From positions 1 to 64,000 of IMG/VR virus record IMGVR_UViG_2906610324_000001: a stretch of DNA of 64,000 nucleotides, one strand, 5' to 3'. Numbering within the stretch: the stretch's first letter is position 1; the number at the start of each line of letters is the position of its first letter. The translations under genes were made by a program, and so were the position numbers. The stretch comes from a virus (lineage: Duplodnaviria > Caudoviricetes). Shown one piece after another: positions 49,474 through 64,000 of the stretch. Below the pieces are notes generated by a model, which did not search any database, was not told the DNA's origin, and saw nothing but the letters and a program-made list of their open reading frames with translations.

Positions 49474-50396
49474 TTAGTGAATTGTGTTGAGGAATGCTAC
49501 TAGACCGTTAGGTACTTCGGATTTCGACGCAAGAGCGCCTATCGTGATCCCGCCGGAATTAACTCCCTTGGGACTGCCGATTTTGGTGAAGTGTTAGATT
49601 TCTCGGCCGCTCGATCGGCAGCGAGAAGATCAAGCCATTTCATGAAGAACAGCAGGTTGAACTTGCCGCGATAGCGCTTTTGTGGATTCAACTTTGGGAA
49701 CTCGGCTTTCAACGTATCGAACTGCTCCAAGCTGACCTGCTCATTGAATATGACGACTTGCTCAGGCCCAACAGCAATAGGACTGACGCTGTCCAGGGCG
49801 ACCAGCGCGACGTTGTTTATCCGCGTAGGCAGATGTTTTTGGAGCGTGAAGCCGTTTTTTCTGGCGATGAATAGGCGAAAGTTTATTGCTTCTGTAGCAG
49901 TTAGAAATTCAGTTAAGCGTTGGTCGAAGACGGCGAGGCAAGCATTGCGGATCTCGGGTTCCGCATGACAGTGGAATTCGTCTTTGAGAAGTTCTTCCAG
50001 AACTTCTCGCGTAACGAGATAGTTTTCGACAGAGTACTGATCTGTCGCGAAGGTTGTGGCAGGGTCAGGATCGAACCCTCGAAAGTCGTCAAAATCTCGG
50101 TCGATGAAGAAATAGACGCGAGCTGCGAGGCCGCCTAAATCGCGCCTCAGCATCTCTCGAAACTCAAGGACTTGCCGCTTTCCACCGCATGGGAACGGCT
50201 CATAGACAAGGTCAGAGCGAAGCCGCTTCACCCACTGAAAATAGGCTCCCTTGTCTAAATCGCCTTCAAACGCAAAGACGAGACAGCCAGGGCTTGAGCT
50301 TCGCACTGATGCGAGTTTCGTCTTCAAGACTGCTGGGCGATCTCGTGCGGCTCTTAGTTTATTGACATAGGCGTCCTGCGAAACGGGAAGTGTCAT
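49474..50396 (-). CDS. DUF4435 TOPRIM-like protein (AriB-like) with an apparent frameshift near 49595
   Basis: FEGDLD, IDRDFD, YSVENY; the annotated frame stops at 49539, the shifted frame continues to 49474. Confidence 0.78.
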
Positions 50397-51874
50397 GTGT
50401 TGTCAGGCTCGAAATCTTCAGCGACTTGCGATGCCCGCTCAGCATCGACGGCGGATGTAAGCGGCCGAGCAAACGGCTCAAGTGAGTTGTCGAATACAAA
50501 TGGTGAGTGAGTAATTGCCACGACTTGGCGGCACAAAGGAGCCTCAACAATGTCGACAAGTATTTGGCGCTGCCAGTCGAGGGAGAGCGATAACTCCGGC
50601 TCGTCGATCAGTATGATTTTCTCTTTGGGGTATAGATAAAGCTTAGCGAACAGCGAGATCATCTGCTTTTCGCCTGACGAAAGGGAGTTCAGTGGGATTT
50701 TTCTGTGCGCTTCGAGACTGTCGACCGAGATCGTAAGGTCTCGCCTGCTGAGCGTTAGAACCTTGCCGTCTATCTCTCCGCTGGCTGGAGACCCAAGAAG
50801 GTCTCTTCCGTGCATTGTTGTGCTGATGTCGACTGAAGACATGTATTTATTGCAGTTGTCGATGAAATCGCGGACCAACGCTTCAATTTCTCGCGTCGAT
50901 TGGACGACGCTGTTTAGCTTGCCTAAGAAGTACCGAAGGAACTTATTGCTTTCTTGAGATATGCCTCCCGTGCCTGTGTAGATCTGGGCGATGTTAGGAA
51001 TAGACAACTCGAAATGTGGACCATAGTGGCGCCTAGTCCGGTCGTCTTTGAGCCGGGAGAAGAATAGCTCCAGCTCTGCACGATCTGGAATCTCGTCCTG
51101 CATTGGGTCAGCGCGATCGAACTGCCCGCTGATAAGCTCGTTGATGATACTTGCACTGAGTTCCCGGTAACCCAGGCTTGAGTCCGTGACGATGCGTTGA
51201 TTGAGGTCGGATAGCCGGTCAACAACATCCGATAGGCCGAATTGGATATCGCCTGAATATAAGCCTGACCTCTGAGCAGGCAGAACCTGTTTGCGCATGC
51301 GGCCGTAACGGTCGGGGCGAGCAGGTATTGCCAGCTCGATGCGCCTGTAGGTCGGAAGATACACAACCTCGACGTTTTCCATTGCACTGCGCAGGAGCTT
51401 CAATGTGGAAAGTATGGTCGGTACTTCGCTGTGCAGAACTTTCGTTAGCCTATCGCAGAGAGCGCGGACGTTTGCATAGCTATGGCCATGCTTTTGCATG
51501 AGGGTGGAAGTAACTTCATCGTCAAGATATACGCGATCTGTATCCGAATCGTGTTCCTCAAGATGCAAGTACAGCATCGACGTCTCGATTTCGAGCCGAC
51601 GAGATTCTGCCTCGACTACTGCGTTCGACGTATACTTGGAGACTTCTTCACTTGTTAAAACAAGCTCGTCAGACAAGCTTCGTAGCTTGCAGCGGATGCT
51701 GGAGAACTGGAGTTCTTTAAGCCTTGAGAACTGCCCTTTTAGAAACGCATCCAGCGCTGCCAGGAGGGTGGTTTTACCGGAGCCGTTCTTAGCTATTAGA
51801 AGCGTCGCCGCGTAGTCTGACTCTAAAGAAATAGAGCGGTACCCGTGGAGACCCTCAATCTTGAAATATTGCAC
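50393..51874 (-). CDS. ABC/AAA_21 ATPase (AriA-like); PARIS/AbiL-type defence pair
   Basis: NGSGKTT, LSSGEKQ, LIDEPELSL, THSP; overlaps the DUF4435 gene; lower GC. Confidence 0.85.
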   Translation of the reverse strand: MQYFKIEGLHGYRSISLESDYAATLLIAKNGSGKTTLLAALDAFLKGQFSRLKELQFSSIRCKLRSLSDELVLTSEEVSKYTSNAVVEAESRRLEIETSMLYLHLEEHDSDTDRVYLDDEVTSTLMQKHGHSYANVRALCDRLTKVLHSEVPTILSTLKLLRSAMENVEVVYLPTYRRIELAIPARPDRYGRMRKQVLPAQRSGLYSGDIQFGLSDVVDRLSDLNQRIVTDSSLGYRELSASIINELISGQFDRADPMQDEIPDRAELELFFSRLKDDRTRRHYGPHFELSIPNIAQIYTGTGGISQESNKFLRYFLGKLNSVVQSTREIEALVRDFIDNCNKYMSSVDISTTMHGRDLLGSPASGEIDGKVLTLSRRDLTISVDSLEAHRKIPLNSLSSGEKQMISLFAKLYLYPKEKIILIDEPELSLSLDWQRQILVDIVEAPLCRQVVAITHSPFVFDNSLEPFARPLTSAVDAERASQVAEDFEPDNT

Positions 51875-52143: not shown

Positions 52144-52482
52144 TCAGTCCTCGAGGTCAGCATCAGCCGGCATCTGCCGAAGCTTCTGGTAGGGGAATTC
52201 GCCGAGCTCGGGGTGCAGCCGATCTTGCTGGATCATTGCCGCGGCCGCCATGCGGGCGGTGCCGAGGCCACCGGGCAGTGTCAGCAACGTCAGCGCGATC
52301 GGCACCCACGTCGGGATATCCTGCACCTGGCCGTCGTCCTTCTTCTTCCCCCATCGGTTCACCGTGACGAGGTTTTGGCAGAACACGCGGGCGAATGATT
52401 TCCGGTTGAGACCTTGGCGCTCGAGCTCGGCATCGAAGTCGGCCGCCGAGATCTTGCGGTGGACAAATCGGGGTGGTGACAT
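52144..52482 (-). CDS. XRE-like HTH protein; last gene of the leftward module
   Basis: DF...L...GLNRKSFARVF...LVTVNRW...IPTWV. Confidence 0.65.
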   Translation of the reverse strand: MSPPRFVHRKISAADFDAELERQGLNRKSFARVFCQNLVTVNRWGKKKDDGQVQDIPTWVPIALTLLTLPGGLGTARMAAAAMIQQDRLHPELGEFPYQKLRQMPADADLED

Positions 52483-52574
52483 CTCAGGATCCTTTCCGGT
52501 TGGGCACATTCGCCCGGAATCGGCTGTAGCCGAGGGGGTAGCACAAAATCGATCGTAGCCGGGAGTCCCGGCGA

Positions 52575-52946
52575 TCAGGTGTAGTCGAGCGGATGGACCT
52601 GGCGCTTGCCGACGGTCATCACCGGCGGGATGACGGCTCCGCGCTTGATCGCAGCCAGCCACTGCGCCTCCGTTCCCGTGAAGCCGGGCGCGGCCTCCAC
52701 ATGGTGGTCGGCCAGCCACTTGGCCAAGGCCTCGGGCGAGGCGCACGGCGGCGAAACCGGTGTGCCGGCGCTGGTGGTCTCGTATAGCTGCCAATGCGTT
52801 CGCTCCGCGGCTGGCCAGGCCGGCATGCTGCGCGCGGGATCGGGCGAGGGCGCATCCGGGCCGGACTCGAGCAGCGGGACATATCGGCCGCCGGAGTTGC
52901 GGGGGTGCTGCCAGTCAGCGGGCACTTGCCTGACGGTTCTTGACAT
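52575..52946 (-). CDS. Hypothetical phage protein
   Basis: WQHP...WQLYETTSAGTPVSP; AAAGG SD. Confidence 0.7.
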   Translation of the reverse strand: MSRTVRQVPADWQHPRNSGGRYVPLLESGPDAPSPDPARSMPAWPAAERTHWQLYETTSAGTPVSPPCASPEALAKWLADHHVEAAPGFTGTEAQWLAAIKRGAVIPPVMTVGKRQVHPLDYT

Positions 52947-52982
52947 AGCAATCGCCTTTCAAAATAGATCGTATCCGGGGGA

Positions 52983-53255
52983 TCAGAACAGCGAGCCTTG
53001 CGCGGGCGCCGGCGGCTCAGGTTTAAGACGTCCGAGGTGCTCGACCGTCTCGCCTATGATCTGGTCGCGATCATCATCGATCAGCAGCCAACCATCATCG
53101 CCGCCCGCTGGATCGTAAACCACGAAGTCACCGCCCCAACGCTTGAAGATGCGTTCGGCCACCAGGCGCACGGCCGCGGGAACGTCCGTTGCGGCGTCGA
53201 ACCCGGCCCGCGTCACGATCTTGAAGCCGGCCGCCGTCAGTATCTGTTCGGTCAT
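52983..53255 (-). CDS. Hypothetical protein
   Basis: Coupled ORF. Confidence 0.65.
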   Translation of the reverse strand: MTEQILTAAGFKIVTRAGFDAATDVPAAVRLVAERIFKRWGGDFVVYDPAGGDDGWLLIDDDRDQIIGETVEHLGRLKPEPPAPAQGSLF

Positions 53256-53446
53256 GTTCGCTGGCCCTTCGCTCGTTCAAGGGCCGCTTGCACCTCCCAA
53301 GCCTGATAGATCGCCCCTCGGGCTTCCGTAAGCTTCTCCCGAACCTCTGGCCGCAATCGCTGGTCATTCGAGTCCATGACGCGCGTGAGGCCGTCCAGGA
53401 GCCGGTTATAGGTGTCCCAGTGGAAAGGGTGCTTGCGTGCTGTCAC
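53252..53446 (-). CDS. Hypothetical protein
   Basis: GTGA coupling. Confidence 0.6.
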   Translation of the reverse strand: MTARKHPFHWDTYNRLLDGLTRVMDSNDQRLRPEVREKLTEARGAIYQAWEVQAALERAKGQRT

Positions 53447-53754
53447 CGCCGCGCCCTCGCGGCTGCATGAACCTTGCGGGCGAGCTCGTCGCGGATCGCG
53501 CGGCCAACGTCGGAGTCCTCCATAGCGGTCAGCCAAAGGCGTTCATCGTCCTGGACGACGGCCGCCGCGGCTTCCTCCAGCCTTTTGCCGGCCATGAAGT
53601 GCGGCGCCACGCGGGCAATGAAGGTCTTTTCGTCGTCCGTCAGCTGTCGGCCCGGAGCCGGCGGCGCAGCGAAGGCACCTCCGAGCGCTTCGAGGACGCC
53701 GGCGCGCGCGCCTTCAACGGGACCGGAATAGATTTCAGTCTTCTTGGCCGTCAT
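53443..53754 (-). CDS. Hypothetical protein
   Basis: GGAGG SD. Confidence 0.65.
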   Translation of the reverse strand: MTAKKTEIYSGPVEGARAGVLEALGGAFAAPPAPGRQLTDDEKTFIARVAPHFMAGKRLEEAAAAVVQDDERLWLTAMEDSDVGRAIRDELARKVHAAARARR

Positions 53755-53837
53755 GGGTGAACCTCCGTTCAAATCGGTCGTAGCCGAGGGGGTGATGGGA
53801 AATCGATCGTAGCCGGGGAGGTGGGCGCAGCCGGGGG

Positions 53838-56198
53838 CTATCCCGGCGGCGGCCCATCGATCACGACGAGCGCTGTGTTGACCATGGTACCGGCGGCCTT
53901 GAATGACCCCGCGGGCAGAGGGCGGAATTCCACCGCCATCGGTTCGAGCTTCGCCCGCTGGCGCGGACCGTCGGCGCAGATCGCGACGAGCCGGCCACCA
54001 GGCTTCAAGAACTTCCGGCCATGCGTGATGTGCTTGATGTCGGCGCCGTTCTCAAATGGCGGGTTCATCAAGACAATGTCGAAACGCTCGGCCGGCGGGT
54101 CGAAGTCCAGGAAGTCGCCGCAGTGGACGAACGTGCCGGGGAACGCTGCGCGCAGGTGCTCCGAAAGTTTTGCGTTGATCTCGACCGCCACCACCTGCAG
54201 ACCATCGGCGCAGTTGCGCGCAGCTTCGATCAGTGCGCCCGTTCCGGCGCTCGGCTCCAAGATGCGCTGCCCGGGCCGGATGTCGGCCGCCTCTGCCACG
54301 TCCGCGGCGAGTTCGCCCGATGTCGGGAAGAGCTGAGGCGCAACGACGACTTGCACGCCGCCGCCTTTCAGCATCGCCCGCATGGCCTCGAAACTATCCG
54401 CCGCCGTCGGCGCGGGCAAATCGGCCGTATCCGGGACCGGGGCGAGAACGCGCGGCCGAAGGTCCGCCGGCACGGCCTCGGCCTCGAACGGCACGCCAGC
54501 CAGTCCGCAGAACTGCCGCCAGGCGGTCGCCTCGTCGTCGCACCAATCTGTAACGTGCTGGCCGATGCCAACACGGAATTTGCCGAGTCCGGTGATGATC
54601 TCGGCCCCCGCGCGCTGCGCCTCCGCCTTGGCATCGCCGAGGCGCCGCGGCTCTTCCGCGGGCGCAACCGGGACCAGCGCCGCCACGGCCTCGGGCTCGT
54701 CCTGGGCCTCCCTCTCGCCCGGTGCGCCGATGATCTCGGCGACCGTTGCCAGCATGGCGTCAAGATCAACCGCGGGCGGCGCGACATACTCGGCGACGAA
54801 TTCGGCCGGCTCGGTTGGCTCCGGTGCTGGCGCGATCTTGGGCGGATCGACCCGCTTTGCATCCGTGATGTAAACTTGGACCTTCTTCCAGTATTCACCG
54901 GGCTTCGGCATCTGGCGGACGCGGTGCGCGCTGTGGGTCTCGGTCTCCTTCACTTTGCCGATATAGTGGAAATCCGAGAACTGCGGGCGCGCCTTCCATT
55001 CGGCCTCCGTCATCTCGCGGAATCCTTCGCCGGGATAGTTGCAGATCGGCGGGAGCTTGGCGGCGGACTTCGCCGCGGCGACGTTCTCCGCGCTCGGCGG
55101 CCGATAATCGCTGATGCTCTCCACGCTCCATTGCGCGCGCTTGGAGCGCGAGCCAGTCGGCGCGGTCGTCGTCATGCTGGAAACCGAACCGTTGGCGCCC
55201 TTGTTGACCTTCAGCACGGTAAGCCACTCGTCGCAGCGGCTCGTCTGCACCTGACCGCCGACCGCGAAGGCGAAGCGGTCCGCAAGCGGGTTGGCGGTCG
55301 CCTCCGCTCCGATCTGCTCGGCCAGCATCGCCCGTTCATAGGCCAGCCGGTTGTCATAGTGCGCAATCCAGCGGGCGCGCCGAGGCCCGGAGCGCTCCAG
55401 GCTCGGAATCGCAATCGCGGCGGCCTGCGCGGCGGTGATGACGTTCCCATCAATCGCCGACCAAAGGCCCATTGGCCCCTCATATTGCGAGGCTGGCGGG
55501 TCGCGCGGATAATCGGCCAGCGGAAACGACATCGACCAATAACCGCCGACATTCGCCACGGCCAAGCCGGCCGCGCGCTGCTTCTCGGGGTCATTGATGC
55601 CGGCGACGATTTGCCAGGCCTTCAGCTGCCTTTCGGTCTCCGCTTGCTGGCGCTCCACCTTCCGCTTGTCGGACTCAATGCCCTTGATGCGGCGATGACG
55701 CACCGCCGGCAGTTCCTTGTATTTCGCATGAGCGATTGCGCCGGCCGCGCGCGCAGTCCAATAATTCGAGGTGTCCCAGAGCCTGACCGCCTTGCGCATG
55801 TTGCTGTGTATGCGCTCTTGATCCTTGCGGGCACGCTTCTCGCTGTGGTGCCCAACCAAAATAGGCTGCCCCCCATAGAAGCGCTCGGCGATCTCATCGG
55901 ACACTTTCCGCGCGCTCTCGGCTTCCGCCAAGCGCTTTTCGCTATACCCCTCGAAGCGGTCGGCGCGCTGCTCGGCGCGGTCGGTCAGCGTGGTGTCTTC
56001 GTCGCCGATCTCGCCACACATCTCAATCAGCAAGTCTTCGGCGCCGGGGCTCCAGGTTGGTTTGACGAACAGTTCTTGACGCGGCGCCCACTTGAAGCCG
56101 GCGGCCTTCACGCGCGCGTAATCCTCGGCGTCGAGCCGGTGCGCCGGATAAAGCCGCAGCTTGTTGTCATCGGGCGAATAGGTGGCGGAATGCTGCAT
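53838..56198 (-). CDS. DUF3560 protein fused to a C-terminal N6-adenine methyltransferase
   Basis: ATYSPDDNKLRL, GQPILVGHHSEKRARKD; ILEPSAGTG, VEIN, MNPPF. Confidence 0.88.
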   Translation of the reverse strand: MQHSATYSPDDNKLRLYPAHRLDAEDYARVKAAGFKWAPRQELFVKPTWSPGAEDLLIEMCGEIGDEDTTLTDRAEQRADRFEGYSEKRLAEAESARKVSDEIAERFYGGQPILVGHHSEKRARKDQERIHSNMRKAVRLWDTSNYWTARAAGAIAHAKYKELPAVRHRRIKGIESDKRKVERQQAETERQLKAWQIVAGINDPEKQRAAGLAVANVGGYWSMSFPLADYPRDPPASQYEGPMGLWSAIDGNVITAAQAAAIAIPSLERSGPRRARWIAHYDNRLAYERAMLAEQIGAEATANPLADRFAFAVGGQVQTSRCDEWLTVLKVNKGANGSVSSMTTTAPTGSRSKRAQWSVESISDYRPPSAENVAAAKSAAKLPPICNYPGEGFREMTEAEWKARPQFSDFHYIGKVKETETHSAHRVRQMPKPGEYWKKVQVYITDAKRVDPPKIAPAPEPTEPAEFVAEYVAPPAVDLDAMLATVAEIIGAPGEREAQDEPEAVAALVPVAPAEEPRRLGDAKAEAQRAGAEIITGLGKFRVGIGQHVTDWCDDEATAWRQFCGLAGVPFEAEAVPADLRPRVLAPVPDTADLPAPTAADSFEAMRAMLKGGGVQVVVAPQLFPTSGELAADVAEAADIRPGQRILEPSAGTGALIEAARNCADGLQVVAVEINAKLSEHLRAAFPGTFVHCGDFLDFDPPAERFDIVLMNPPFENGADIKHITHGRKFLKPGGRLVAICADGPRQRAKLEPMAVEFRPLPAGSFKAAGTMVNTALVVIDGPPPG

Positions 56199-56266
56199 GT
56201 GTTTTCATCCTTTCAACTTGCGCACAATCGCGCGGGGCTGCTTCTCTAATTTGTGTCGGCCGAATC

Positions 56267-56272
56267 TGTCAA
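56267..56272 (-). promoter_or_regulatory. Perfect -35 (TTGACA) upstream of the DUF3560-MTase gene
   Basis: TTGACA-N18-TAGAGA on the minus strand, just downstream of a repeat pair. Confidence 0.45.
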
Positions 56273-56327
56273 TCGTGTTTGCAAAATCGGCCGTAGCTCG
56301 GGGATGGAAAATCGATCGTAGCCGGGA

Positions 56328-57230
56328 CTAGTGCGCAGTGCCGACGCGCAGGAGTGCCAAGGCGTGATACTCGCTGCCCTCGGCGGCCTTGGCCTTTACG
56401 AATGCCTCGGCCTCGTCGTCGCGGCTCACGCCGTTGCGGACAAATATTGAAGACTCGGCGTCCGCCTGAATCTCAAGCGTGCCGGTGTCGCTGTTCTCGA
56501 ACAGGCCCCATCCTTCCGAGCAAGCGCGGTCATCCTGCCCGATGAATCGCGCCGCGGGCGCAACCGGAAGGCCGGCGGCCGCTCGGCGATAGGCCTCGGC
56601 CGCCTCGTCAGCGTCGGAGACCGCTTCCGCAATCGTGCCGTCCTCGTCGCTGAACATGCCGCGCATCTGGTCAATCTGATGGGTGCAGGCGTCGAGCGCG
56701 CCGGCCAGGTCGCGGGCGATCTGGCGCCAGTCCTGCGCAGGCGCAACCGGGACTGTGCCGCCGACAATCTCCAATTCCTCGACCCGGAAGAAGTCGCCGC
56801 GCATTTCGCCGACGCGCTCAAAATAGGCTTCCGCTAGCTCGTCAGGATCGGCCGGCTTGTCCTCGTCCATCCGTGCGGCCCAATTCTCGGCCGCGATCTC
56901 ACGGCGCCAGGCGCGCGCCGTGTCGCTGTTAGGATAGAGGCGCGTTTCGTCGCCGTGCCGGGTTTCATGGGTAGCCACGGCGAGCGGTGGCAGCGTCACG
57001 GTCCGCTCTTCGATGATGCAGGGGCCGTCAACGGCATCTTCCCATAGCTCGCTGATATTGTCCGCCGTCGCGGCCTCGACCGCGGCCAGGCGCTCGGGGG
57101 TCCGCTTGAGGATGTCGCGCAGGCTCGTGCGGACATATTCCACCGCCTCGGACTGCGTGGCGTGCACCGTGGTTTCGGTCCCGCAGTTGTCGCCCTCAGT
57201 GGTGCAAGTCCAAATCGTGATTGTGCTCAT
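56328..57230 (-). CDS. Acidic hypothetical protein
   Basis: 300 aa; GAAAGGAG SD. Confidence 0.75.
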   Translation of the reverse strand: MSTITIWTCTTEGDNCGTETTVHATQSEAVEYVRTSLRDILKRTPERLAAVEAATADNISELWEDAVDGPCIIEERTVTLPPLAVATHETRHGDETRLYPNSDTARAWRREIAAENWAARMDEDKPADPDELAEAYFERVGEMRGDFFRVEELEIVGGTVPVAPAQDWRQIARDLAGALDACTHQIDQMRGMFSDEDGTIAEAVSDADEAAEAYRRAAAGLPVAPAARFIGQDDRACSEGWGLFENSDTGTLEIQADAESSIFVRNGVSRDDEAEAFVKAKAAEGSEYHALALLRVGTAH

Positions 57231-57274
57231 TGTGATGATCTCCTTTCAAAAACAACCGTAGCCAAGGGGCGGAA

Positions 57275-57625
57275 TCAGTCGCGGGCGGGGGGATTGGTGC
57301 GGGTTTCGAGGCCGCGCGCGTGGCGCTCGGCGCCCTCTACGGATTTCAGCGCGCGCGCCACGTAATCCGCTGCATTGTTGGCGTCGGCGATCCGCAGGTG
57401 ATTGCGCGCGGTGCGGATCAACTGCGCGGCAAGCCGGACACGCTCCAGGCGGGAGGCCGGCGGCGTTTCCAATAGCGACAACTGCGCGTCACGCTTCTGC
57501 AGGCGCTCAATCTCGGCCAGCGCCAAGTCAGCTTGTGCGCTCGGGCTGTCGCTGTCCTCGTGCGGAACGTCAACATTCAGCGCGCCAAGAATCGAGTCGG
57601 TAAAGTCGGTGCAGGTGTAAGTCAT
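57275..57625 (-). CDS. Hypothetical protein
   Basis: Hairpin plus AAAGGA leader. Confidence 0.7.
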   Translation of the reverse strand: MTYTCTDFTDSILGALNVDVPHEDSDSPSAQADLALAEIERLQKRDAQLSLLETPPASRLERVRLAAQLIRTARNHLRIADANNAADYVARALKSVEGAERHARGLETRTNPPARD

Positions 57626-57765
57626 TTGGCTTTCGTCCTTTCGTTTTGCGCACTATCGCGCAGATGGTGGAGCGACCGCGGCCAGGTGCGCGCGTCATCC
57701 ACCGCGCAAAATCGGCCGTAGTCGGGAGGTGCGCCGCCGGCCGGGAAATCAGCTGGCCCCGGGGG

Positions 57766-58173
57766 TTACTCGGCGAGCTCTTCCAGGGTGACGCCGTCTT
57801 CGGCCGCATACTCGGAAATCAGAGTCAGCGCCCAATCTTCCGCCGCGCCGATCATTTCGCCGTCGCCGCCGCCGTGTTTCGAGTTGACCCTGGCGCATGC
57901 GTCCGCGGTCCATCGTTCAAGGCCGGGAACGTCGCCGAAAAAGTCGCGCGCGCGTTCCAAAACGGATTCCTCCGACAAGCACGCGAGGCCGTAAATCCCG
58001 GCGATGTGCTCGGCGTCGTAAAGCAGCGTCAATCCGTCATCGCGGGTTGAGCGCTGGCGCGCGTAGCGCCAGGCTACGCCGTAGCGTTGCAGCGCGGAGC
58101 GGACGCGCCATCGATACTTTGAAGCCTCGTTAACGAGCGTGGCGAGCGGCGAGCGGGGCAAGGTGAGATGCAT
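57766..58173 (-). CDS. Hypothetical protein
   Basis: AAAGGA SD. Confidence 0.65.
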   Translation of the reverse strand: MHLTLPRSPLATLVNEASKYRWRVRSALQRYGVAWRYARQRSTRDDGLTLLYDAEHIAGIYGLACLSEESVLERARDFFGDVPGLERWTADACARVNSKHGGGDGEMIGAAEDWALTLISEYAAEDGVTLEELAE

Positions 58174-58220
58174 AACGGTTCCTTTGTTCTGTGATGGGAA
58201 ATCGGCCGGCGGCGGGACTG

Positions 58221-58499
58221 TTAGCAATTCACTTCGTGAAAGCCGCGCACACCGTTCAAGACCTTGAAGCCCGGCGGGGAACGATCGCCCTTGCCAATCC
58301 GCATAGTGGCAACCGCCGGCTTTCCCGTTGCCGCCAGGTCCGCGCAGTAGTCCGCGAATGCCTTTTCTGCATCGGCCGCGCGCTTAATCTCGACTTCGCG
58401 CCGTGGGAGCGGGCTTTTGTCCTCTCCGATGCAAAGCGCCACGCTAACGAATGCGCCGTTACGTTCCGCCGCGTAGCTATTCAAGATCAGTTTCGCCAT
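58221..58499 (-). CDS. Hypothetical protein
   Basis: Hairpin plus AAAGGAG leader. Confidence 0.7.
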   Translation of the reverse strand: MAKLILNSYAAERNGAFVSVALCIGEDKSPLPRREVEIKRAADAEKAFADYCADLAATGKPAVATMRIGKGDRSPPGFKVLNGVRGFHEVNC

Positions 58500-58586
58500 G
58501 TCGTTTAACTCCTTTCGAATTGCGCACCATTGCGCCGAGAAAATCGGCCGCAGCCGAGGGATTGAGGAAATCGGCCGCAACCGGGA

Positions 58587-59000
58587 CTAGGCCGCGGCGG
58601 CTTGCTCGGCCGGCTTTTCGTCGGTCTGCGAAACGTCGAAAACCGGTACCAGGATGAACCGCACCGACTCCGCCGCGGCCTCGGCCGCGGCGCCGTCCGC
58701 GCTCGGCGCCGCTGAGGCCTCGGCCGTTGCGCGCCGGCCGGACGGCGCAAAGATGTAGATTGCGGACTCGCCTTTGCGGACCGCGCGGCCGGCGGCAAGC
58801 CATTGATTGAAGCCGCCCAGCATAGTTGCGCCTTCGCATTGCATCGCCGCCAGCATGTGATTTTTTCCGGATATCGGCCGCGCGTCCGCGGTGAGGATCG
58901 GCGCGCGCTGCAGCCAAAGCGCCTTCTGCTCTTCCGTCATGTTGGCAATCTGGCGCGCCAGTTGCGCGGCCTTTTCTTTGTTGGGATTCGGTTTCCGCAT
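58587..59000 (-). CDS. ArdC N-terminal ssDNA-binding domain protein (stand-alone)
   Basis: N..L...Q, GGFNQW...GRAVRKGESAI.I, F..VPVFDVSQT. Confidence 0.8.
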   Translation of the reverse strand: MRKPNPNKEKAAQLARQIANMTEEQKALWLQRAPILTADARPISGKNHMLAAMQCEGATMLGGFNQWLAAGRAVRKGESAIYIFAPSGRRATAEASAAPSADGAAAEAAAESVRFILVPVFDVSQTDEKPAEQAAAA

Positions 59001-59070
59001 GGTCTGTTTTCCTTTCCGTTTGCGCACAATCGCGCGTGTTGCATTCCGTGAGGCCGAGGCGCGCCGCGGC

Positions 59071-59268
59071 TTAGTGCAGTTCCCAAGCGCGCAATTCGAC
59101 GCGTGAACGCTTGCCGCGCTTGAATTCGTCGCAGCGGCGCGCGTATTCCTCGGCCTCGGCGGCGGTATCAAACCGCCGAGATAGTTCGCCCCAATTGTTG
59201 AATTCGCAGCGATCAATCAGGCGAAACTTTGCGCCAACGGGCAAGATATCGAATCCATAGGCTCGCAT
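59071..59268 (-). CDS. Small hypothetical protein
   Basis: GGAG SD; FDTAAEAE motif. Confidence 0.6.
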   Translation of the reverse strand: MRAYGFDILPVGAKFRLIDRCEFNNWGELSRRFDTAAEAEEYARRCDEFKRGKRSRVELRAWELH

Positions 59269-59283
59269 TGCTGGCGACTCCGA

Positions 59284-60381
59284 CTAGCTGGCGCGGATCG
59301 CGCAGAAAGGCGCAACCGGGAGGGATGGCCGAGGCGCGCCGAGCGATGACGAGGCCAGGAAGCGCGCGGCGCGGGAAGGCGCAACCGGGATAGGGGCCGC
59401 GGAGTTGGGCGCGGGCGCAACCGGGAGGGCATCGACCGTATCCGGGAGGGAAGCCGCCGCGGTTTCGACGCCGGCGGAATTGTTTGCGACAAGCCGCAAC
59501 CGCGGCGCCTCGGCCTCGGCCTTGGCTGCAGCTGCGCGCGCCTCGGCCTCTTGCTCGGCGCGCCGGCCGGCCTCGGCCTCGGCCTTTGCCGCGGCTTTGG
59601 CCTCGGCCTCGGCCGCGCGAACGACGGCGCGGCGCCGCGCTTCAATTTCCAGCCATGCCATACCGCCGAGGCGCGACCGATAGTCTGCAATCTGCGCGCC
59701 GAGCTCGGCCGCGCGTTCCTCGTCGGCGCCGGCCAAAATCTCGGCCTCGGCCGAGGCAATGAGGTAGTGCCCGCGGTAGAAGTCGGCGCGCGTCAACCCG
59801 CCGGCCTCGGCGGTTTCCGGCAAGGCCGAGGCCTCGGCGGAAAGCGCGACATGATCGAAACGGCCGCGGCGATATTCGGCCGTCCGCGCGTTGCATTCCT
59901 CGGCCGGATATTCGGCGCCGGTAGCGTCACAGATGGCAGAAACGATGGACGGGACCGCGACACAATCGGAACCGATTGCCGAGGCTTTCCCGAATTCCCG
60001 CGCGACCCGCGCGCGGTAGAAGGCGAAGGCAACGCGCAAGCCGCGGCCGATATTGACCGGCTTGCCAGGCAGTGAAACGGCTGGCGCGCGTACCACGGCG
60101 CCGCATACAAACGTCACAACGATGATAGGCGACTTGCCTAGCTTTTTCGTCGCGCTTGCCGGGATGACATAATCCGCCCATGGATCCGCCGCGCCGTCCG
60201 GGATATTGGCCGCGCCGGATCCGGCTTTCTGCGCCGGCAATGCGAGGCGCAGCAAATCGGCAATGCCGCGCCAGTTCGCGCCGTCGGGATTCGCGGTCGC
60301 GTTGTCATAGGCGAGGATCGCCAGCGCGCGCCGTTCCGTTGCCTTTGCGGCCTTGGCCGCGATCAAATCAACCTGTTGCAT
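59284..60381 (-). CDS. Ala-rich hypothetical protein
   Basis: Hairpin plus AAAGGA leader; 365 aa. Confidence 0.7.
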   Translation of the reverse strand: MQQVDLIAAKAAKATERRALAILAYDNATANPDGANWRGIADLLRLALPAQKAGSGAANIPDGAADPWADYVIPASATKKLGKSPIIVVTFVCGAVVRAPAVSLPGKPVNIGRGLRVAFAFYRARVAREFGKASAIGSDCVAVPSIVSAICDATGAEYPAEECNARTAEYRRGRFDHVALSAEASALPETAEAGGLTRADFYRGHYLIASAEAEILAGADEERAAELGAQIADYRSRLGGMAWLEIEARRRAVVRAAEAEAKAAAKAEAEAGRRAEQEAEARAAAAKAEAEAPRLRLVANNSAGVETAAASLPDTVDALPVAPAPNSAAPIPVAPSRAARFLASSSLGAPRPSLPVAPFCAIRAS

Positions 60382-60476
60382 GGTCCATTGTCCTTTCTGA
60401 TTTGCGCACGATTGCGCCGAGAATTGAGGGAAGGCCGAGGCCAGGTTAGGCCGTAGCTTTGGCGCGGCGCCGCGCG

Positions 60477-60746
60477 TCAATCGCGGCGCGTATCACTTTT
60501 CTTGAACCGCGGCGCATAACGGCCGTTGAATGCACGCAATTCAGAAAAGGCGATATCGGCCGCGGCCTTGGCAATCCGGTATCGCGGATCGAATTTAATT
60601 CGGTCCGGAGTCAGTCCCATCGGACCGCGCGCCGGAATCCCCATTTCGGCCGCAAGGCCTTCTGTCACGGCGCCGAGGCGCGCGCCGGCCTCTTTGATCC
60701 GGTTATCCAACTCGGCCGCGGCGGCTTGGAATGCTGCAAAATCCAT
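60477..60746 (-). CDS. Hypothetical phage protein
   Basis: GPMGLTPD.IK...ELRAFN. Confidence 0.65.
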   Translation of the reverse strand: MDFAAFQAAAAELDNRIKEAGARLGAVTEGLAAEMGIPARGPMGLTPDRIKFDPRYRIAKAAADIAFSELRAFNGRYAPRFKKSDTRRD

Positions 60747-60754
60747 CGGTGCAC

Positions 60755-60943
60755 CTAGACGCTTTCGTCAAAGCGCGCGGCCTCAAAGTCGCGGCTTGCC
60801 TGTTCTGCCTCGGCGCCGGTAAGCATGCGGCGGCTTGTCGGATAATAGAACGCGCGCGTTCCGACCGGGATGAAATGCCCGTTGCGGTCATTGGCCGGAT
60901 ATTTGGTAATGATCCATCGCGGATCGCCGCCATAGCGTGCCAT
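60755..60943 (-). CDS. Small hypothetical protein (MARYGGDPRW...)
   Basis: Hairpin plus AAAGGA leader. Confidence 0.7.
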   Translation of the reverse strand: MARYGGDPRWIITKYPANDRNGHFIPVGTRAFYYPTSRRMLTGAEAEQASRDFEAARFDESV

Positions 60944-61008
60944 TGTAGTCTGTCCTTTCCAGTTTGCGCACAATCGCGCGGGAGACAAATTCGACGGCCG
61001 AGGCCGAG

Positions 61009-61149
61009 CTATTCCAGCATGTCCGCAATGAACCGGACCGCGGCCGGATATCGGCAGAAACTGCGCAGCAATGCGACGATTCCGCGCGCCGTGTAGTAAC
61101 CCGCCGGGATACCGTGCAAGTTATCCGGAATGAAGGTTTCGCGGTCCAT
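61009..61149 (-). CDS. Small hypothetical protein
   Basis: 46 aa; directly follows the upstream stop. Confidence 0.5.
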   Translation of the reverse strand: MDRETFIPDNLHGIPAGYYTARGIVALLRSFCRYPAAVRFIADMLE

Positions 61150-61153
61150 TGGC

Positions 61154-61492
61154 CTAGTATCCTGCAGCCTCGGCGGAATAGTCGCGCTGGCCAGTCTCGG
61201 CGGTTTGCCAGTCCGGAAAGCGCGCGCCGTTTTCGGTATCGTTGTAACCCGCCGAAAGCCTATCGGCCGGGCAGGTGCAAACGCCATCGCGGGTTATGCG
61301 TCCAACGCAGTCCGCGCCATCGTTGCACCATTCGTTAGTCACGGTTTGCCCGTCGAAAGAAAAGATATTGGACTCGCGCGTCCATCCTTCGTCCGTTCTG
61401 GCGCCGTGCGAATGGTGCAACGTTTGGCCAGTCCGCAACGCGATACGGACAAGGCCGGATTTGTGATAGTGCCAAAAGCGCGCTGTTTTCAT
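61154..61492 (-). CDS. Hypothetical protein (MKTARFWHY...)
   Basis: GAGGG SD; TDEGW, QRDYSAEAAGY. Confidence 0.7.
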   Translation of the reverse strand: MKTARFWHYHKSGLVRIALRTGQTLHHSHGARTDEGWTRESNIFSFDGQTVTNEWCNDGADCVGRITRDGVCTCPADRLSAGYNDTENGARFPDWQTAETGQRDYSAEAAGY

Positions 61493-61502
61493 GCGGTATC
61501 CC

Positions 61503-61832
61503 TCACGGAAGGCGGTTAAAGACGGAATGATAGGCCGAGGCCTCGGCGATGCACTCGCGCGCGGCCTCAAGATTGCGAGCGCGCGCCATGGGCGAGTTTT
61601 TCGCGGCGCGCCGATAGTAAGCCGCCCAGTGCAAAGCCTCGGCCGCAAGCGCGCGGCGCGGCCGGCAAGATAGCCGCGACGTCCGCAAGGCAACCGGACC
61701 GGCCGCGCGTTCTGCGCGCGCCGTGAATTCCGTTCCGTTGCAGACAATCCAGAACGTTGCCACATTGTGGCGCCGGCCGCGCGCCTCGGCGCGTAGCGCG
61801 GAAATGGTGCGGCGGAATGCATCGCGGTTCAT
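61503..61832 (-). CDS. Hypothetical protein
   Basis: ATGA coupling. Confidence 0.6.
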   Translation of the reverse strand: MNRDAFRRTISALRAEARGRRHNVATFWIVCNGTEFTARAERAAGPVALRTSRLSCRPRRALAAEALHWAAYYRRAAKNSPMARARNLEAARECIAEASAYHSVFNRLP

Positions 61833-62233
61833 GCTGCGCGCTCCAGTTCGCAAGCCGCGGTCCATCCGGTTGCGCGATCATAGGAGGCCGCGCGCGCGAT
61901 CATTGGCGGCTTGCGCAATTCGTCATCTGGCGGAATCACGCCATAGCGTTCCGGCGCGGCGTCAAGTTTCGCCATGGCTGCAGCATGCTCGGCCGCGCGC
62001 CACACATTGAAGGCCGCGACGATATGCGCCGGTAGCGGTTCAGCGTATCGGACAAGCATGCCGATTCCGGTTCGCATGGCGCGGCGGACATCATCGCCAT
62101 TTGCTATCGATAGCTCATAGTCTGAAACGGAATGACGGATGCTAACCTCATAGCTCTCGGTTTCATCCGTGACGCGATAGTAGACGGTCCCCATGTAGGA
62201 ACATTTCCAAGTGAATTGCGGCTTGCGTGTCAT
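61829..62233 (-). CDS. Hypothetical protein
   Basis: AAAGG SD with a partial hairpin. Confidence 0.65.
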   Translation of the reverse strand: MTRKPQFTWKCSYMGTVYYRVTDETESYEVSIRHSVSDYELSIANGDDVRRAMRTGIGMLVRYAEPLPAHIVAAFNVWRAAEHAAAMAKLDAAPERYGVIPPDDELRKPPMIARAASYDRATGWTAACELERAA

Positions 62234-62260
62234 CGTCAAGGCCTTTCGGGTTGCGCGCAG

Positions 62261-62704
62261 TTAGATGACGCGAACGGTTGCGCCGGCCGGCAAATGAACC
62301 GCGCAACCGCCGTGAGAGTCGCGGCGCTTGATCTCCAGATGGACCGGCAGCCATCCGGTTGACTTCCCGACATAGAACCGGGACCGCGCGCCATCTGGCG
62401 CGGTGACTTCTACGCGCTTCCCTTCGAGGCCGATTAGTTGCGGCGCCAGCTGCGCGGGACAACGCGACCTAGTCGCGGCCGCATGATTGGCGCCGGCCTT
62501 CATTGTCGCGCGGTAGACTCGATAATGCTGGATTGTGCCGGGCTTGAATGCGCCGAGGCCTGGAGGGACCGCGGCCGAGGGAAGCCAGGCCGCGACGTCG
62601 CGCGCCCATCTCTCGGCGACACTGAAGCCAACGCAAGTATATCCGGCGCCGGATCGCAGAACATAAAGGCCTTGCTCGGCATTGATGGAATGAAAGTCAC
62701 TCAT
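62261..62704 (-). CDS. Hypothetical phage protein
   Basis: QLIGLEGKRVEV...RFYVGKSTGWLP.HL; hairpin leader. Confidence 0.7.
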   Translation of the reverse strand: MSDFHSINAEQGLYVLRSGAGYTCVGFSVAERWARDVAAWLPSAAVPPGLGAFKPGTIQHYRVYRATMKAGANHAAATRSRCPAQLAPQLIGLEGKRVEVTAPDGARSRFYVGKSTGWLPVHLEIKRRDSHGGCAVHLPAGATVRVI

Positions 62705-62798
62705 CTCGGTTTGTCCTATTCGGTTTGCGCACAATCGCGCTTTGGTCCGCTTTGGCGTTCCGTTGTGCGGCGCGCCTCGGCGCCGCACCGTCGGAAAG

Positions 62799-63215
62799 TC
62801 AGTTGGAGGGAACGAAATTCATTCCCGTGCGGTCCAATGCCTCAAGTTTGAGGAAAGCGCGGACACGTTCCAAAGCATCCGGCCAAAGAATGACGCCGCC
62901 GCTTGTCGCCGGATCGTCGCTCCAATTGAGTCCGGCCAGAACGAAAGCCGGGCAAAAATCCCAATCGAATTGGACTTGATCGCGCTCGGAGTCCGTAAGG
63001 GATTGCCAAACGGTTTCGCAGTCTGGAGCGAGCCGGATCATGATATGGCGCATTTCGTATGCGCCCCATCCGTCACGGTATTGGTCAACTAGTTCCGCGG
63101 CGGCTTTGATTTCCGCGGGACGATCGTTGCGCCATTCCGGGTTGCTGGCGTCAATACAGGCTTCCCAGAGGCAAAGCGCGGCCTCGGCAATAAGCGGATT
63201 CAACTCGGTTTGCAT
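62799..63215 (-). CDS. Hypothetical protein
   Basis: GAGGAG SD. Confidence 0.7.
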   Translation of the reverse strand: MQTELNPLIAEAALCLWEACIDASNPEWRNDRPAEIKAAAELVDQYRDGWGAYEMRHIMIRLAPDCETVWQSLTDSERDQVQFDWDFCPAFVLAGLNWSDDPATSGGVILWPDALERVRAFLKLEALDRTGMNFVPSN

Positions 63216-63227
63216 CTCGGGCGCTCC

Positions 63228-63332
63228 TCAAAGGCACGAATTCAGAAAAGCGCGCTTGCCGTCGCGCACCGCGGCGCGCCGAGTCCGCTTGTCGCTCGGC
63301 CGGCGGTCGGAATCATGCTTGCGATACTTCAT
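63228..63332 (-). CDS. 34-aa basic peptide (MKYRKHDSDRRP...); not in the ORF track
   Basis: Hairpin plus AAAAGGA leader; stop overlaps the next SD. Confidence 0.5.
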   Translation of the reverse strand: MKYRKHDSDRRPSDKRTRRAAVRDGKRAFLNSCL

Positions 63333-63424
63333 GGCCTTTTTCCTTTTCGAATTGCGCACAATTGCGCGGTTTCGGCGGTTTGCCGGTTATGCCGTGACGT
63401 GCACGGCATAGGCTGCAAATCGCG

Positions 63425-63664
63425 TTAGTTGATACGCTCGCAAGCGCCGGTTTCAGCGTTCCAGCGTATCAGCATATCGTTAGCTCGGATCGAAAGGCCG
63501 CGGGACATGCGGACGTCGCGCGGCGCCGGCCGGCCGGTTTCGTGAAACCATTGGCCGAGGCGGAATGCAATGTGCGTTGCGCTACTCCACAAGTGCGGAT
63601 TGGCCGAGGCCGGCGCGGCATAGCCGGCCGAGGCATAGGCGGTTAAGTCATCGGGCTTTGCCAT
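63425..63664 (-). CDS. Hypothetical protein (MAKPDDL...)
   Basis: GAGGAG SD. Confidence 0.65.
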   Translation of the reverse strand: MAKPDDLTAYASAGYAAPASANPHLWSSATHIAFRLGQWFHETGRPAPRDVRMSRGLSIRANDMLIRWNAETGACERIN

Positions 63665-63677
63665 TGCGGCGCGCTCC

Positions 63678-63758
63678 TCAAAGGCAGCATACGAAAATGA
63701 CAAACGTTCCGACTAAAGCCGCCGCGCAGAACAGAACAAAATCAAGTGTATCGTCCAT
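63678..63758 (-). CDS. 26-aa hydrophobic peptide MDDTLDFVLFCAAALVGTFVIFVCCL; not in the ORF track
   Basis: Hairpin plus AAAGG leader; stop overlaps the next SD. Confidence 0.5.
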   Translation of the reverse strand: MDDTLDFVLFCAAALVGTFVIFVCCL

Positions 63759-63803
63759 TGGTCTAGCCTTTCGATTTGCGCACAATCGCGCGGTGGAAAA
63801 GTG

Positions 63804-64000
63804 TTAGCGGTTGCTGATGACTCGGAATCGGCTTTCGTGAACGCAAAGCCTTCCGCCATCCGCGAATTTGACGATGTGCCAGCCCGGCTGGATTGGTCCG
63901 CTTGCCGCGGTCCATCGCGCGATTTTCGCGACCTCTGGCGCGACGCTGGGAAAGCCGCCAATCGCTGGCGTGCCATGCAATTCAATGCGCGATCCGGTTT
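63804..64000 (-). CDS. 3' part of a hypothetical gene that begins beyond the window
   Basis: Open frame ...GWHIVKFADGGRLCVHESRFRVISNR*. Confidence 0.55.
   Translation of the reverse strand, partial: TGSRIELHGTPAIGGFPSVAPEVAKIARWTAASGPIQPGWHIVKFADGGRLCVHESRFRVISNR

Follow-up and report, generated by a model that had tools for sequence, protein, structure and literature searches.

What does a short hairpin do when one prophage places it in front of gene after gene, on a single strand and at nearly the same distance from the start codon? The question is raised by the window analyzed here, the first 64,000 nucleotides (nt) of a provirus record of 121,323 bases (IMG/VR record IMGVR_UViG_2906610324_000001), at whose right end a leftward module of small genes is encoded. 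An earlier note on this DNA had described a covarying tetraloop hairpin ahead of the Shine-Dalgarno (SD) sequence of ten of these genes and had proposed an undescribed translational regulon. All ten copies were found again by pattern search, and an eleventh was added. The exact 16-mer GCGCRATNGTGCGCAA matches nine times in the window, always on the minus strand and within 56218-63791 (plus-strand starts 56218, 57646, 58520, 59020, 60402, 60964, 62725, 63352, and 63776), the variant GGGCG-AATG-TGCCC-AA at 52500 is the tenth copy, and the eleventh stands just outside the window at 64210-64225 (hairpin 64212-64225). Over the full record, 10 exact matches are found on the minus strand and 0 on the plus strand, and a control pattern read backwards has none on either strand; the 11 copies (10 exact plus the variant) are confined to the gene strand within 12 kb and occur nowhere else in the 121 kb. 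Each is followed by 4 to 5 nt, AAAGG(A) (AATAGGA at the 62725 copy), 7 to 10 nt, and ATG. The closing position in the window copies is G in 7 and A in 3, and the third loop position takes T, A, G, or C. A loose search with 2 mismatches gave 65 matches against 64.6 expected, i.e., without enrichment, and the signal therefore resides in the exact copies.

Two checks suggested by the note, a covariance model and a comparison with Rfam, were carried out. The model (21 positions, with the 64210 copy left out of the training alignment) picks exactly the eleven copies in the 121-kb record at 23.9 to 29.9 bits, the untrained copy included; the next-best match scores 16.8. In two 8-Mb Bradyrhizobium genomes, all model matches fall in one cluster of about 11 kb on a single strand, whereas 150 other genomes of the family gave single matches in 5, near the chance level, and the genome records with multicopy matches are exclusively Bradyrhizobium. 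Rfam, at its gathering score, has no matching family: apart from a tRNA (498-571) the window gave no match, and nothing relevant appeared in 52-64 kb at E values of up to 10. Scans of viral and genome collections with the exact pattern returned many single matches in coding sequence of unrelated phyla, which are chance matches.

The element pairs as a stem of 4 to 5 pairs, in which an invariant C-G pair and an R.U pair close the loop A-Y-N-G. In the close set, which comprises 56 distinct sites from the window and five close relatives, pairing holds in every stem cell, 2 of the 5 pairs never vary, the closing pair is G.U, A-U, or G-C, and the outer pair is G.U twice. The closing G.U, present at 38 of the 56 distinct sites, pairs on the mRNA-sense strand only. 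The sole double change, from C-G to G-C at the last gene, has been inherited by all relatives, so the window evidence cited in the note for covariation is thin, one compensatory event; the close-relative data alone would fit a 4-6-4 duplex operator as well.

The claim of covariation is borne out by diverged relatives, gathered via homologues of the last gene of the module (36 to 61% identity), in which the module layout is alike, the start-linked element is present, and the arms covary around a fixed loop. At least 10 distinct complementary arm pairs occur there around a constant core, C-R-A-Y-N-G-U-G (GGCC/GGCC, UGCC/GGCA, GCGC/GCGC, GGUC/GACC, GUC/GAC, GGC/GCC, CCUC/GAGG, GGAC/GUCC, and CCGC/GCGG among them), several of them inside one genome; in each of the relatives L279, L282, L293, and L294, several arm sequences coexist. 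The first list of diverged sites had required pairing, and the sites were recounted by choosing them on the core R-A-N-N-G-U, the SD, and the start codon only. On the gene strand, 28/56 recounted sites had 4/4 arm pairs and a further 11/56 had 3/4; on the opposite strand, 4/4 pairs occurred at 0/31 sites, with a chance expectation for 4/4 of 0.019. These counts point clearly to hairpin pairing maintained by selection. That one genome accepts many arm sequences, provided they are complementary, argues for a folded single strand and not a double-stranded operator, and the closing G.U pair places that fold on the mRNA-sense strand. A reading of the element as a direct repeat, GCGCRA-N4-GCGCAA, was dropped, since the covariation of the arms is that of an inverted repeat, and so was a pseudoknot between loop and downstream sequence (AUUG with CAAU near AUG), available at two copies only. 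At the last gene (52483-52530, minus strand), an outer helix, UUCCGG with CCGGAA, lengthens the hairpin and reaches into the SD; its counterpart in two relatives is UUUCGG with CCGAAA, a compensatory change, and the helix hints at SD occlusion particular to this gene, which encodes a helix-turn-helix (HTH) protein.

Placement is as constrained as pairing. The distance from the AA behind the hairpin to the GG of the SD is 6 to 9 nt in 126 of 135 sites despite varying spacer sequence, the 3' end of the hairpin lies 16 to 21 nt before ATG, and the hairpin is within the minimum free energy fold of 11/11 leaders. It occurs only in intergenic gaps of 45 to 142 nt and never at coupled genes. Within the window (all minus strand, right to left), GCGCG-AUUG-UGCGC at 63778..63791 (29.9 bits) is followed by AA, 4 nt, AAAGG, and the ATG at 63758; GCGCA-AUUG-UGCGC at 63354..63367 precedes a 34-amino-acid (aa) arginine-rich micro-open reading frame (micro-ORF; ATG 63332); and the hairpin at 62727..62740 precedes a 147-aa phrog_10759 protein (ATG 62704). 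Further copies lie at 60966..60979 (ATG 60943; 62 aa), 60404..60417 (GCGCA-AUCG-UGCGC; ATG 60381; 365 aa), 59022..59035 (ATG 59000; a 137-aa protein with an ArdC N-terminal domain), 58522..58535 (GCGCA-AUGG-UGCGC; ATG 58499; 92 aa), 57648..57661 (GCGCG-AUAG-UGCGC; ATG 57625; 116 aa), and 56220..56233 (ATG 56198; a 786-aa DUF3560 and methyltransferase protein). The variant GGGCG-AAUG-UGCCC at 52502..52515 precedes the last gene of the module and has the same place in all close relatives. For the 56218 and 60402 copies, translation begins not at the first but at the second ATG (56198 and 60381), where the 786-aa and 365-aa frames start.

Does the hairpin lie in the transcript? A conserved sigma-70-like module promoter, TTGACG-N17-GCATGT, stands on the minus strand near 64300, upstream of the eleventh hairpin, and the first copy is therefore transcribed. 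TTGACR-N17-GCATGT is conserved in six close relatives, 13 to 16 nt 5' of the first hairpin copy, and two diverged relatives have TTGACG-N17-TAGGGT (L279) and TTGACA-N17-CATATT (L280) at the same place; across these 6 close and 2 diverged relatives, the first copy begins 9 to 16 nt past the -10 element. A second sigma-70-like candidate, TTGACA-N18-TAGAGA (56243..56272, minus strand; read from the intergenic sequence), ends 9 nt before the 56220 hairpin, so that at both promoter-proximal copies no more than about 10 nt would separate the transcript start from the hairpin. Only 2/11 hairpin junctions have promoter-like -35/-10 sequences, and a generic sigma-70 promoter scan of 52-64 kb was without enrichment and called no promoter at any hairpin, 56243..56272 included. 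No separate inverted repeat was noticed over the -35/-10 elements of the promoter, where no dedicated search was made; the one inverted repeat seen nearby is the hairpin. A sigma-54 site was considered and dropped because the GG/GC spacing does not fit. Judged from sequence, the hairpin most likely acts in the mRNA beside the ribosome-binding site, and the note's preference for an RNA-type hairpin over a DNA operator is now much better supported, by the diverged-arm covariation, the upstream promoter, and the narrow SD distance.

The reading that we favor, with a probability of roughly 45%, is an RNA hairpin regulon in which a single phage factor would control the translation of eleven units together, the hairpin serving also as a crossover point for cassettes. 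Each separately translated unit of the leftward early module would carry the hairpin in its mRNA leader, at the 5' edge of the ribosome landing site, with a stem sequence that is free provided it pairs. One phage-encoded factor would read the constant loop and set the translation of all eleven units jointly, most likely shutting them off following an early burst. The sequence data show the hairpin, its covariation and strand, its SD spacing, its position in a transcribed leader, and the candidate proteins encoded in the module; that a protein binds, which one it is, and whether it represses or activates, we infer. A more sweeping form, in which one small phage protein would run a counter-defense island of 9 to 12 genes, probably the first part to enter the cell, as a translational regulon with the hairpin as plug-in point for cassettes, we regard as doubtful.

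The link to cassettes comes from comparing the module with those of five relatives. Of 60 homology-block starts, 13 fall within -45..+5 of the motif, where 2.5 are expected, and 3 fall at gene starts without the motif; several blocks start exactly at the first base of the motif. By this comparison, the hairpin marks sites at which cassettes have been exchanged between phages, and since the element is conserved it would double as a crossover point for swaps between related phages.

Which protein would bind? A constant loop argues for a specific partner, and from structural modeling the likeliest candidate is the product of the last module gene (52144..52482, minus strand), a 112-aa XRE-type HTH protein that is Aca-like by fold and position. 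Its model (predicted local distance difference test score, 87.5) has an XRE-type HTH at residues 7-75 followed by a conserved helical tail, and the structures closest to it are Aca2 of phage ZF40 (Z score, 7.7; root mean square deviation, 1.7 Å over 56 residues) and Aca1 (Z score, 7.2); further matches are HigA2 and a C-protein. A PDB sequence-profile search with the HTH family returned no Aca match and nothing useful. The gene is the last of the module in all relatives. The alternative binder would be the conserved 34-aa arginine-rich peptide (63228..63332, minus strand), whose micro-ORF is found in 9/12 modules compared, diverged ones included, and which has four small clusters among 1.8 billion representatives.

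Several points weigh against this regulon or against its proposed binder. The near-invariant stem in close relatives would also fit sequence-specific reading or gene conversion. Four to five long intergenic gaps in the module open genes without a hairpin, so the hairpin is unnecessary for some fresh initiations. With Z scores below 8, the structural matches of the HTH protein are of middling strength and speak only to its fold, and the last gene matched neither a Pfam family (E values of up to 0.1) nor a PDB chain by sequence. As the relatives were collected via the last gene, its universal presence is by construction, and only the co-occurrence of the 34-aa peptide is independent. A host factor could equally read the conserved loop.

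The alternatives turn in part on what lies between the genes. A second junction repeat, CGGCTACGRYCGATTT, with about 14 copies in 52517..58583 (minus strand), stands past stop codons and 5' of many hairpin copies. With up to 3 mismatches it has 20 matches against 2.5 expected, 14 of them on the minus strand in 52517-58583; it is often paired, many copies can fold into a UACG-loop hairpin with a U-run, and one copy (54418-54433) lies within the 786-aa reading frame. It is found also in the diverged relatives L279, L280, and L282, and from its sequence it is possibly a weak terminator, a 3' stabilizer, or an RNase E site.

If the early transcript were cut in the U-rich tails of this junction repeat, the start-linked hairpin could be a passive cis element that protects the sub-operon mRNAs from 5'-end-dependent decay and maybe insulates the ribosome-binding site. 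Most copies do lie 7 to 40 nt 3' of a GC hairpin or of a UACG-loop hairpin with GAUUUU, the hairpins of the two promoter-proximal copies would start within about the first 10 nt of their transcripts, and frequent cassette swaps would favor an insulator. Protection, however, needs neither an invariant C-G pair, R.U pair, and A..G loop across phages with 36 to 60% identical proteins nor a tight SD spacing, and the neighboring repeat already has a generic stable UNCG-type loop. We consider such a passive role unlikely.

Less probable again is a nut/boxB-like site, at which the 34-aa peptide would bind the nascent hairpin and let polymerase read through the terminator-like junction hairpins. In lambdoid phages, the conserved loop of boxB is read by an arginine-rich peptide. 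The hairpin resembles that system in its short (5-bp) GC-rich stem, whose arms need only pair and do covary, in its conserved loop, and in the conserved, very basic micro-protein encoded in the module, which may resemble the arginine-rich motifs of N proteins and whose own gene is preceded by the hairpin; many genes, moreover, end in terminator-like hairpins with U-runs. The loop is nevertheless A-Y-N-G on an R.U pair and not a GNRA-like pentaloop, the leaders showed no boxA-like element, and the hairpin keeps a fixed SD distance, which nut sites lack. A single site per operon is what processive antitermination requires, against eleven here, and terminators were not enriched in a generic scan of 52-64 kb (15 versus 13.1 expected).

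Improbable to much the same degree, and slightly more so, is a site read in the DNA, be it a repeated operator or roadblock to which the HTH protein binds or a promoter of hairpin type used by a dedicated polymerase. L5 stoperators and the conserved inverted repeats of phiC31 are duplex DNA sites conserved in sequence, also present at the repressor's own promoter, and the hairpin is like them in its many intergenic copies within one phage, oriented with transcription. The GCGC-N6-GCGC (4-6-4) arrangement in the close relatives, with near-invariant stems, is typical HTH dimer operator geometry, an HTH protein is encoded at the module end and a weak HTH just upstream of the module, and the terminator-like hairpins directly 5' would fit "terminator then promoter" cassettes as in PeSLs (PMC2839356). 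A duplex half-site reading leaves unexplained the complementary but differing arms within single diverged genomes, where the half-site sequence is not conserved, unlike at the L5 and phiC31 sites. The majority closing pair, G.U, becomes a C.A mismatch on the other strand, -35/-10-like sequence is near so few of the copies, and there is no hairpin copy near the region of the repressor gene (28-32 kb). Among the large ORFs of the record, none was found to encode an RNA polymerase or a sigma factor, which weakens the promoter reading, an N4-type hairpin promoter included.

That the hairpin is a recombination linker only, kept as a homology patch for cassette exchange without a role in expression, would account for the block starts at the motif but is very improbable: a 14- to 16-nt patch is very short for homologous exchange, the linker would need sequence identity, yet diverged phages keep pairing and loop while the arms change, and the fixed SD distance would be left unexplained.

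How new, then, would the favored translational regulon be? Anti-CRISPR operons end in genes for Aca proteins, and of these Aca1 and Aca2 are HTH regulators that bind promoter DNA and hairpins in the 5' untranslated region (UTR). Aca2 binds two 5'-UTR hairpins and represses translation, and Aca1 binds an RNA motif; RNA motifs in the intergenic gaps of such operons, as well as up to three motif sites per locus, have been reported, and a reach over neighboring anti-defense operons has been predicted (PMC13551039). In the present module, too, a phage counter-defense operon closes with a small XRE-type HTH gene, and covarying RNA hairpins occupy the operon 5' UTR and the gaps between genes. It differs in having 9 to 12 hairpins per module and another hairpin consensus; no known acr gene was recognized in the module, and searches against Pfam and PDB sequences placed its HTH protein in no Aca family. 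The note's word "undescribed" holds insofar as no Rfam family matches and does not hold for the principle, because anti-defense hairpins in 5' UTRs and intergenic regions bound by Aca2 and Aca1 have been described (PMC13551039). There is precedent, in short, for an HTH-ended counter-defense operon with RNA operators; what is new is the scale (9 to 12 sites), the consensus, and the link to cassette exchange.

Two further repeat families of phages bear comparison. SAS of Cluster K mycobacteriophages is a 13-bp GGGATAGGAGCCC-type repeat that includes the SD, lies 3 to 7 bp from the start, and has no hairpin; a role in translation initiation has been proposed for SAS/ESAS, and the ESAS inverted repeats were judged to be DNA sites (PMC3203893). 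Like SAS/ESAS, the present element is a short asymmetric repeat (SAS/ESAS and element within 11 to 19 copies), in one orientation in the nonstructural half of the genome, at the starts (mostly ATG) of unrelated genes, and absent from the host (PMC3203893). Unlike SAS, of which it is not a member, it has a different, hairpin sequence that lies 5' of the SD and ends 16 to 21 nt before ATG, and unlike the ESAS inverted repeats, which are without RNA-type compensation, it covaries. The PeSLs of the T4-type phages RB49 and phi1 each carry a strong sigma-70 promoter, and their stem-loop is a terminator; the likeness lies in repeated stem-loop/SD/start junctions before small orphan genes, in plastic early regions, and in exchange at the junctions (PMC2839356). 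The hairpin is not a PeSL either, having promoter-like sequence at only 2 of its 11 junctions, a fixed loop, and a fixed SD distance.

All copies fall in one leftward module of about 25 small genes (52144..64000, continuing to about 64300; minus strand), which diverges from the terminase. Most of its genes have no match, the matches being one ArdC N-terminal domain, the one 786-aa DUF3560 and methyltransferase protein, and one phrog_10759; DUF932, DNA ligase, and DUF4942 are found at the same place in diverged relatives. Such gene types are known from the anti-defense leading regions of plasmids (PMC11541004), and by gene content the module would be an early island of counter-defense or anti-restriction type in a Bradyrhizobium prophage. 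Elsewhere in the record, an S24-type repressor, a clamp, a C5 methylase, a primase, and DnaB are encoded at 23-48 kb, and the plus strand from about 64.7 kb encodes terminase, portal, protease, major head, tape-measure, and tail proteins.

Should every hairpin be read by one factor, the module would hold the largest RNA-operator regulon seen so far in a phage counter-defense region, and mRNA binding by an Aca-type HTH would be extended from one or a few sites to a 12-kb island. A regulatory RNA at the points of exchange also suggests a way in which newly acquired genes could join the control of the module immediately. The 21-position covariance model is a practical marker for locating the island, with about 25 mostly unknown small genes per phage, and these small genes thereby become candidate anti-defense genes.

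Directly 5' of the module promoter, a 103-aa gene (record 64334-64645, minus strand) has subthreshold HTH matches (HTH_17; E value, 0.009) and homologues in seven relatives (36 to 50% identity; 96% in G005); by position it could be a further regulator of that promoter. The terminase large subunit frame (record 65304-66669, plus strand) aligns with the L279 homologue only from residues 173-403 onward and covers positions 318-669 of the PHROG profile. For the N-terminal ~170 residues, 64.2-65.5 kb holds no counterpart, only short broken frames; the prophage may be defective, or the N-terminal part of the terminase may have been replaced.

The phrog_10759 gene offered another route to relatives: in 55 viral loci, the hairpin precedes the orthologue only in the close Bradyrhizobium phage, and repeats elsewhere are mostly tandem arrays. 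Three otherwise unrelated phages that share phrog_10759 have start-linked sequences of other kinds. In L258 (7220-11200), TCCACAGGAGA lies 5 to 9 nt before seven ATGs, each time after a differing short hairpin; in L249 (9887-17066), TGATCCACGGAGCAA precedes seven starts; and in L238 (1001-7962), seven CTTGAC-N17-TAGNNT promoters on the other strand run directly into ATG, which could mean leaderless mRNAs.

Just 3' of the module (49539-51874, minus strand), an AAA_15/AAA_21 ATPase (493 aa) and a DUF4435 protein (285 aa) are encoded in a low-GC patch (0.545), a pair that we take to resemble the PARIS defense system (AriA/AriB). An IS66-family transposase lies within the provirus record at 97632-99203, and the tRNA gene matched by Rfam marks the left edge of the window.

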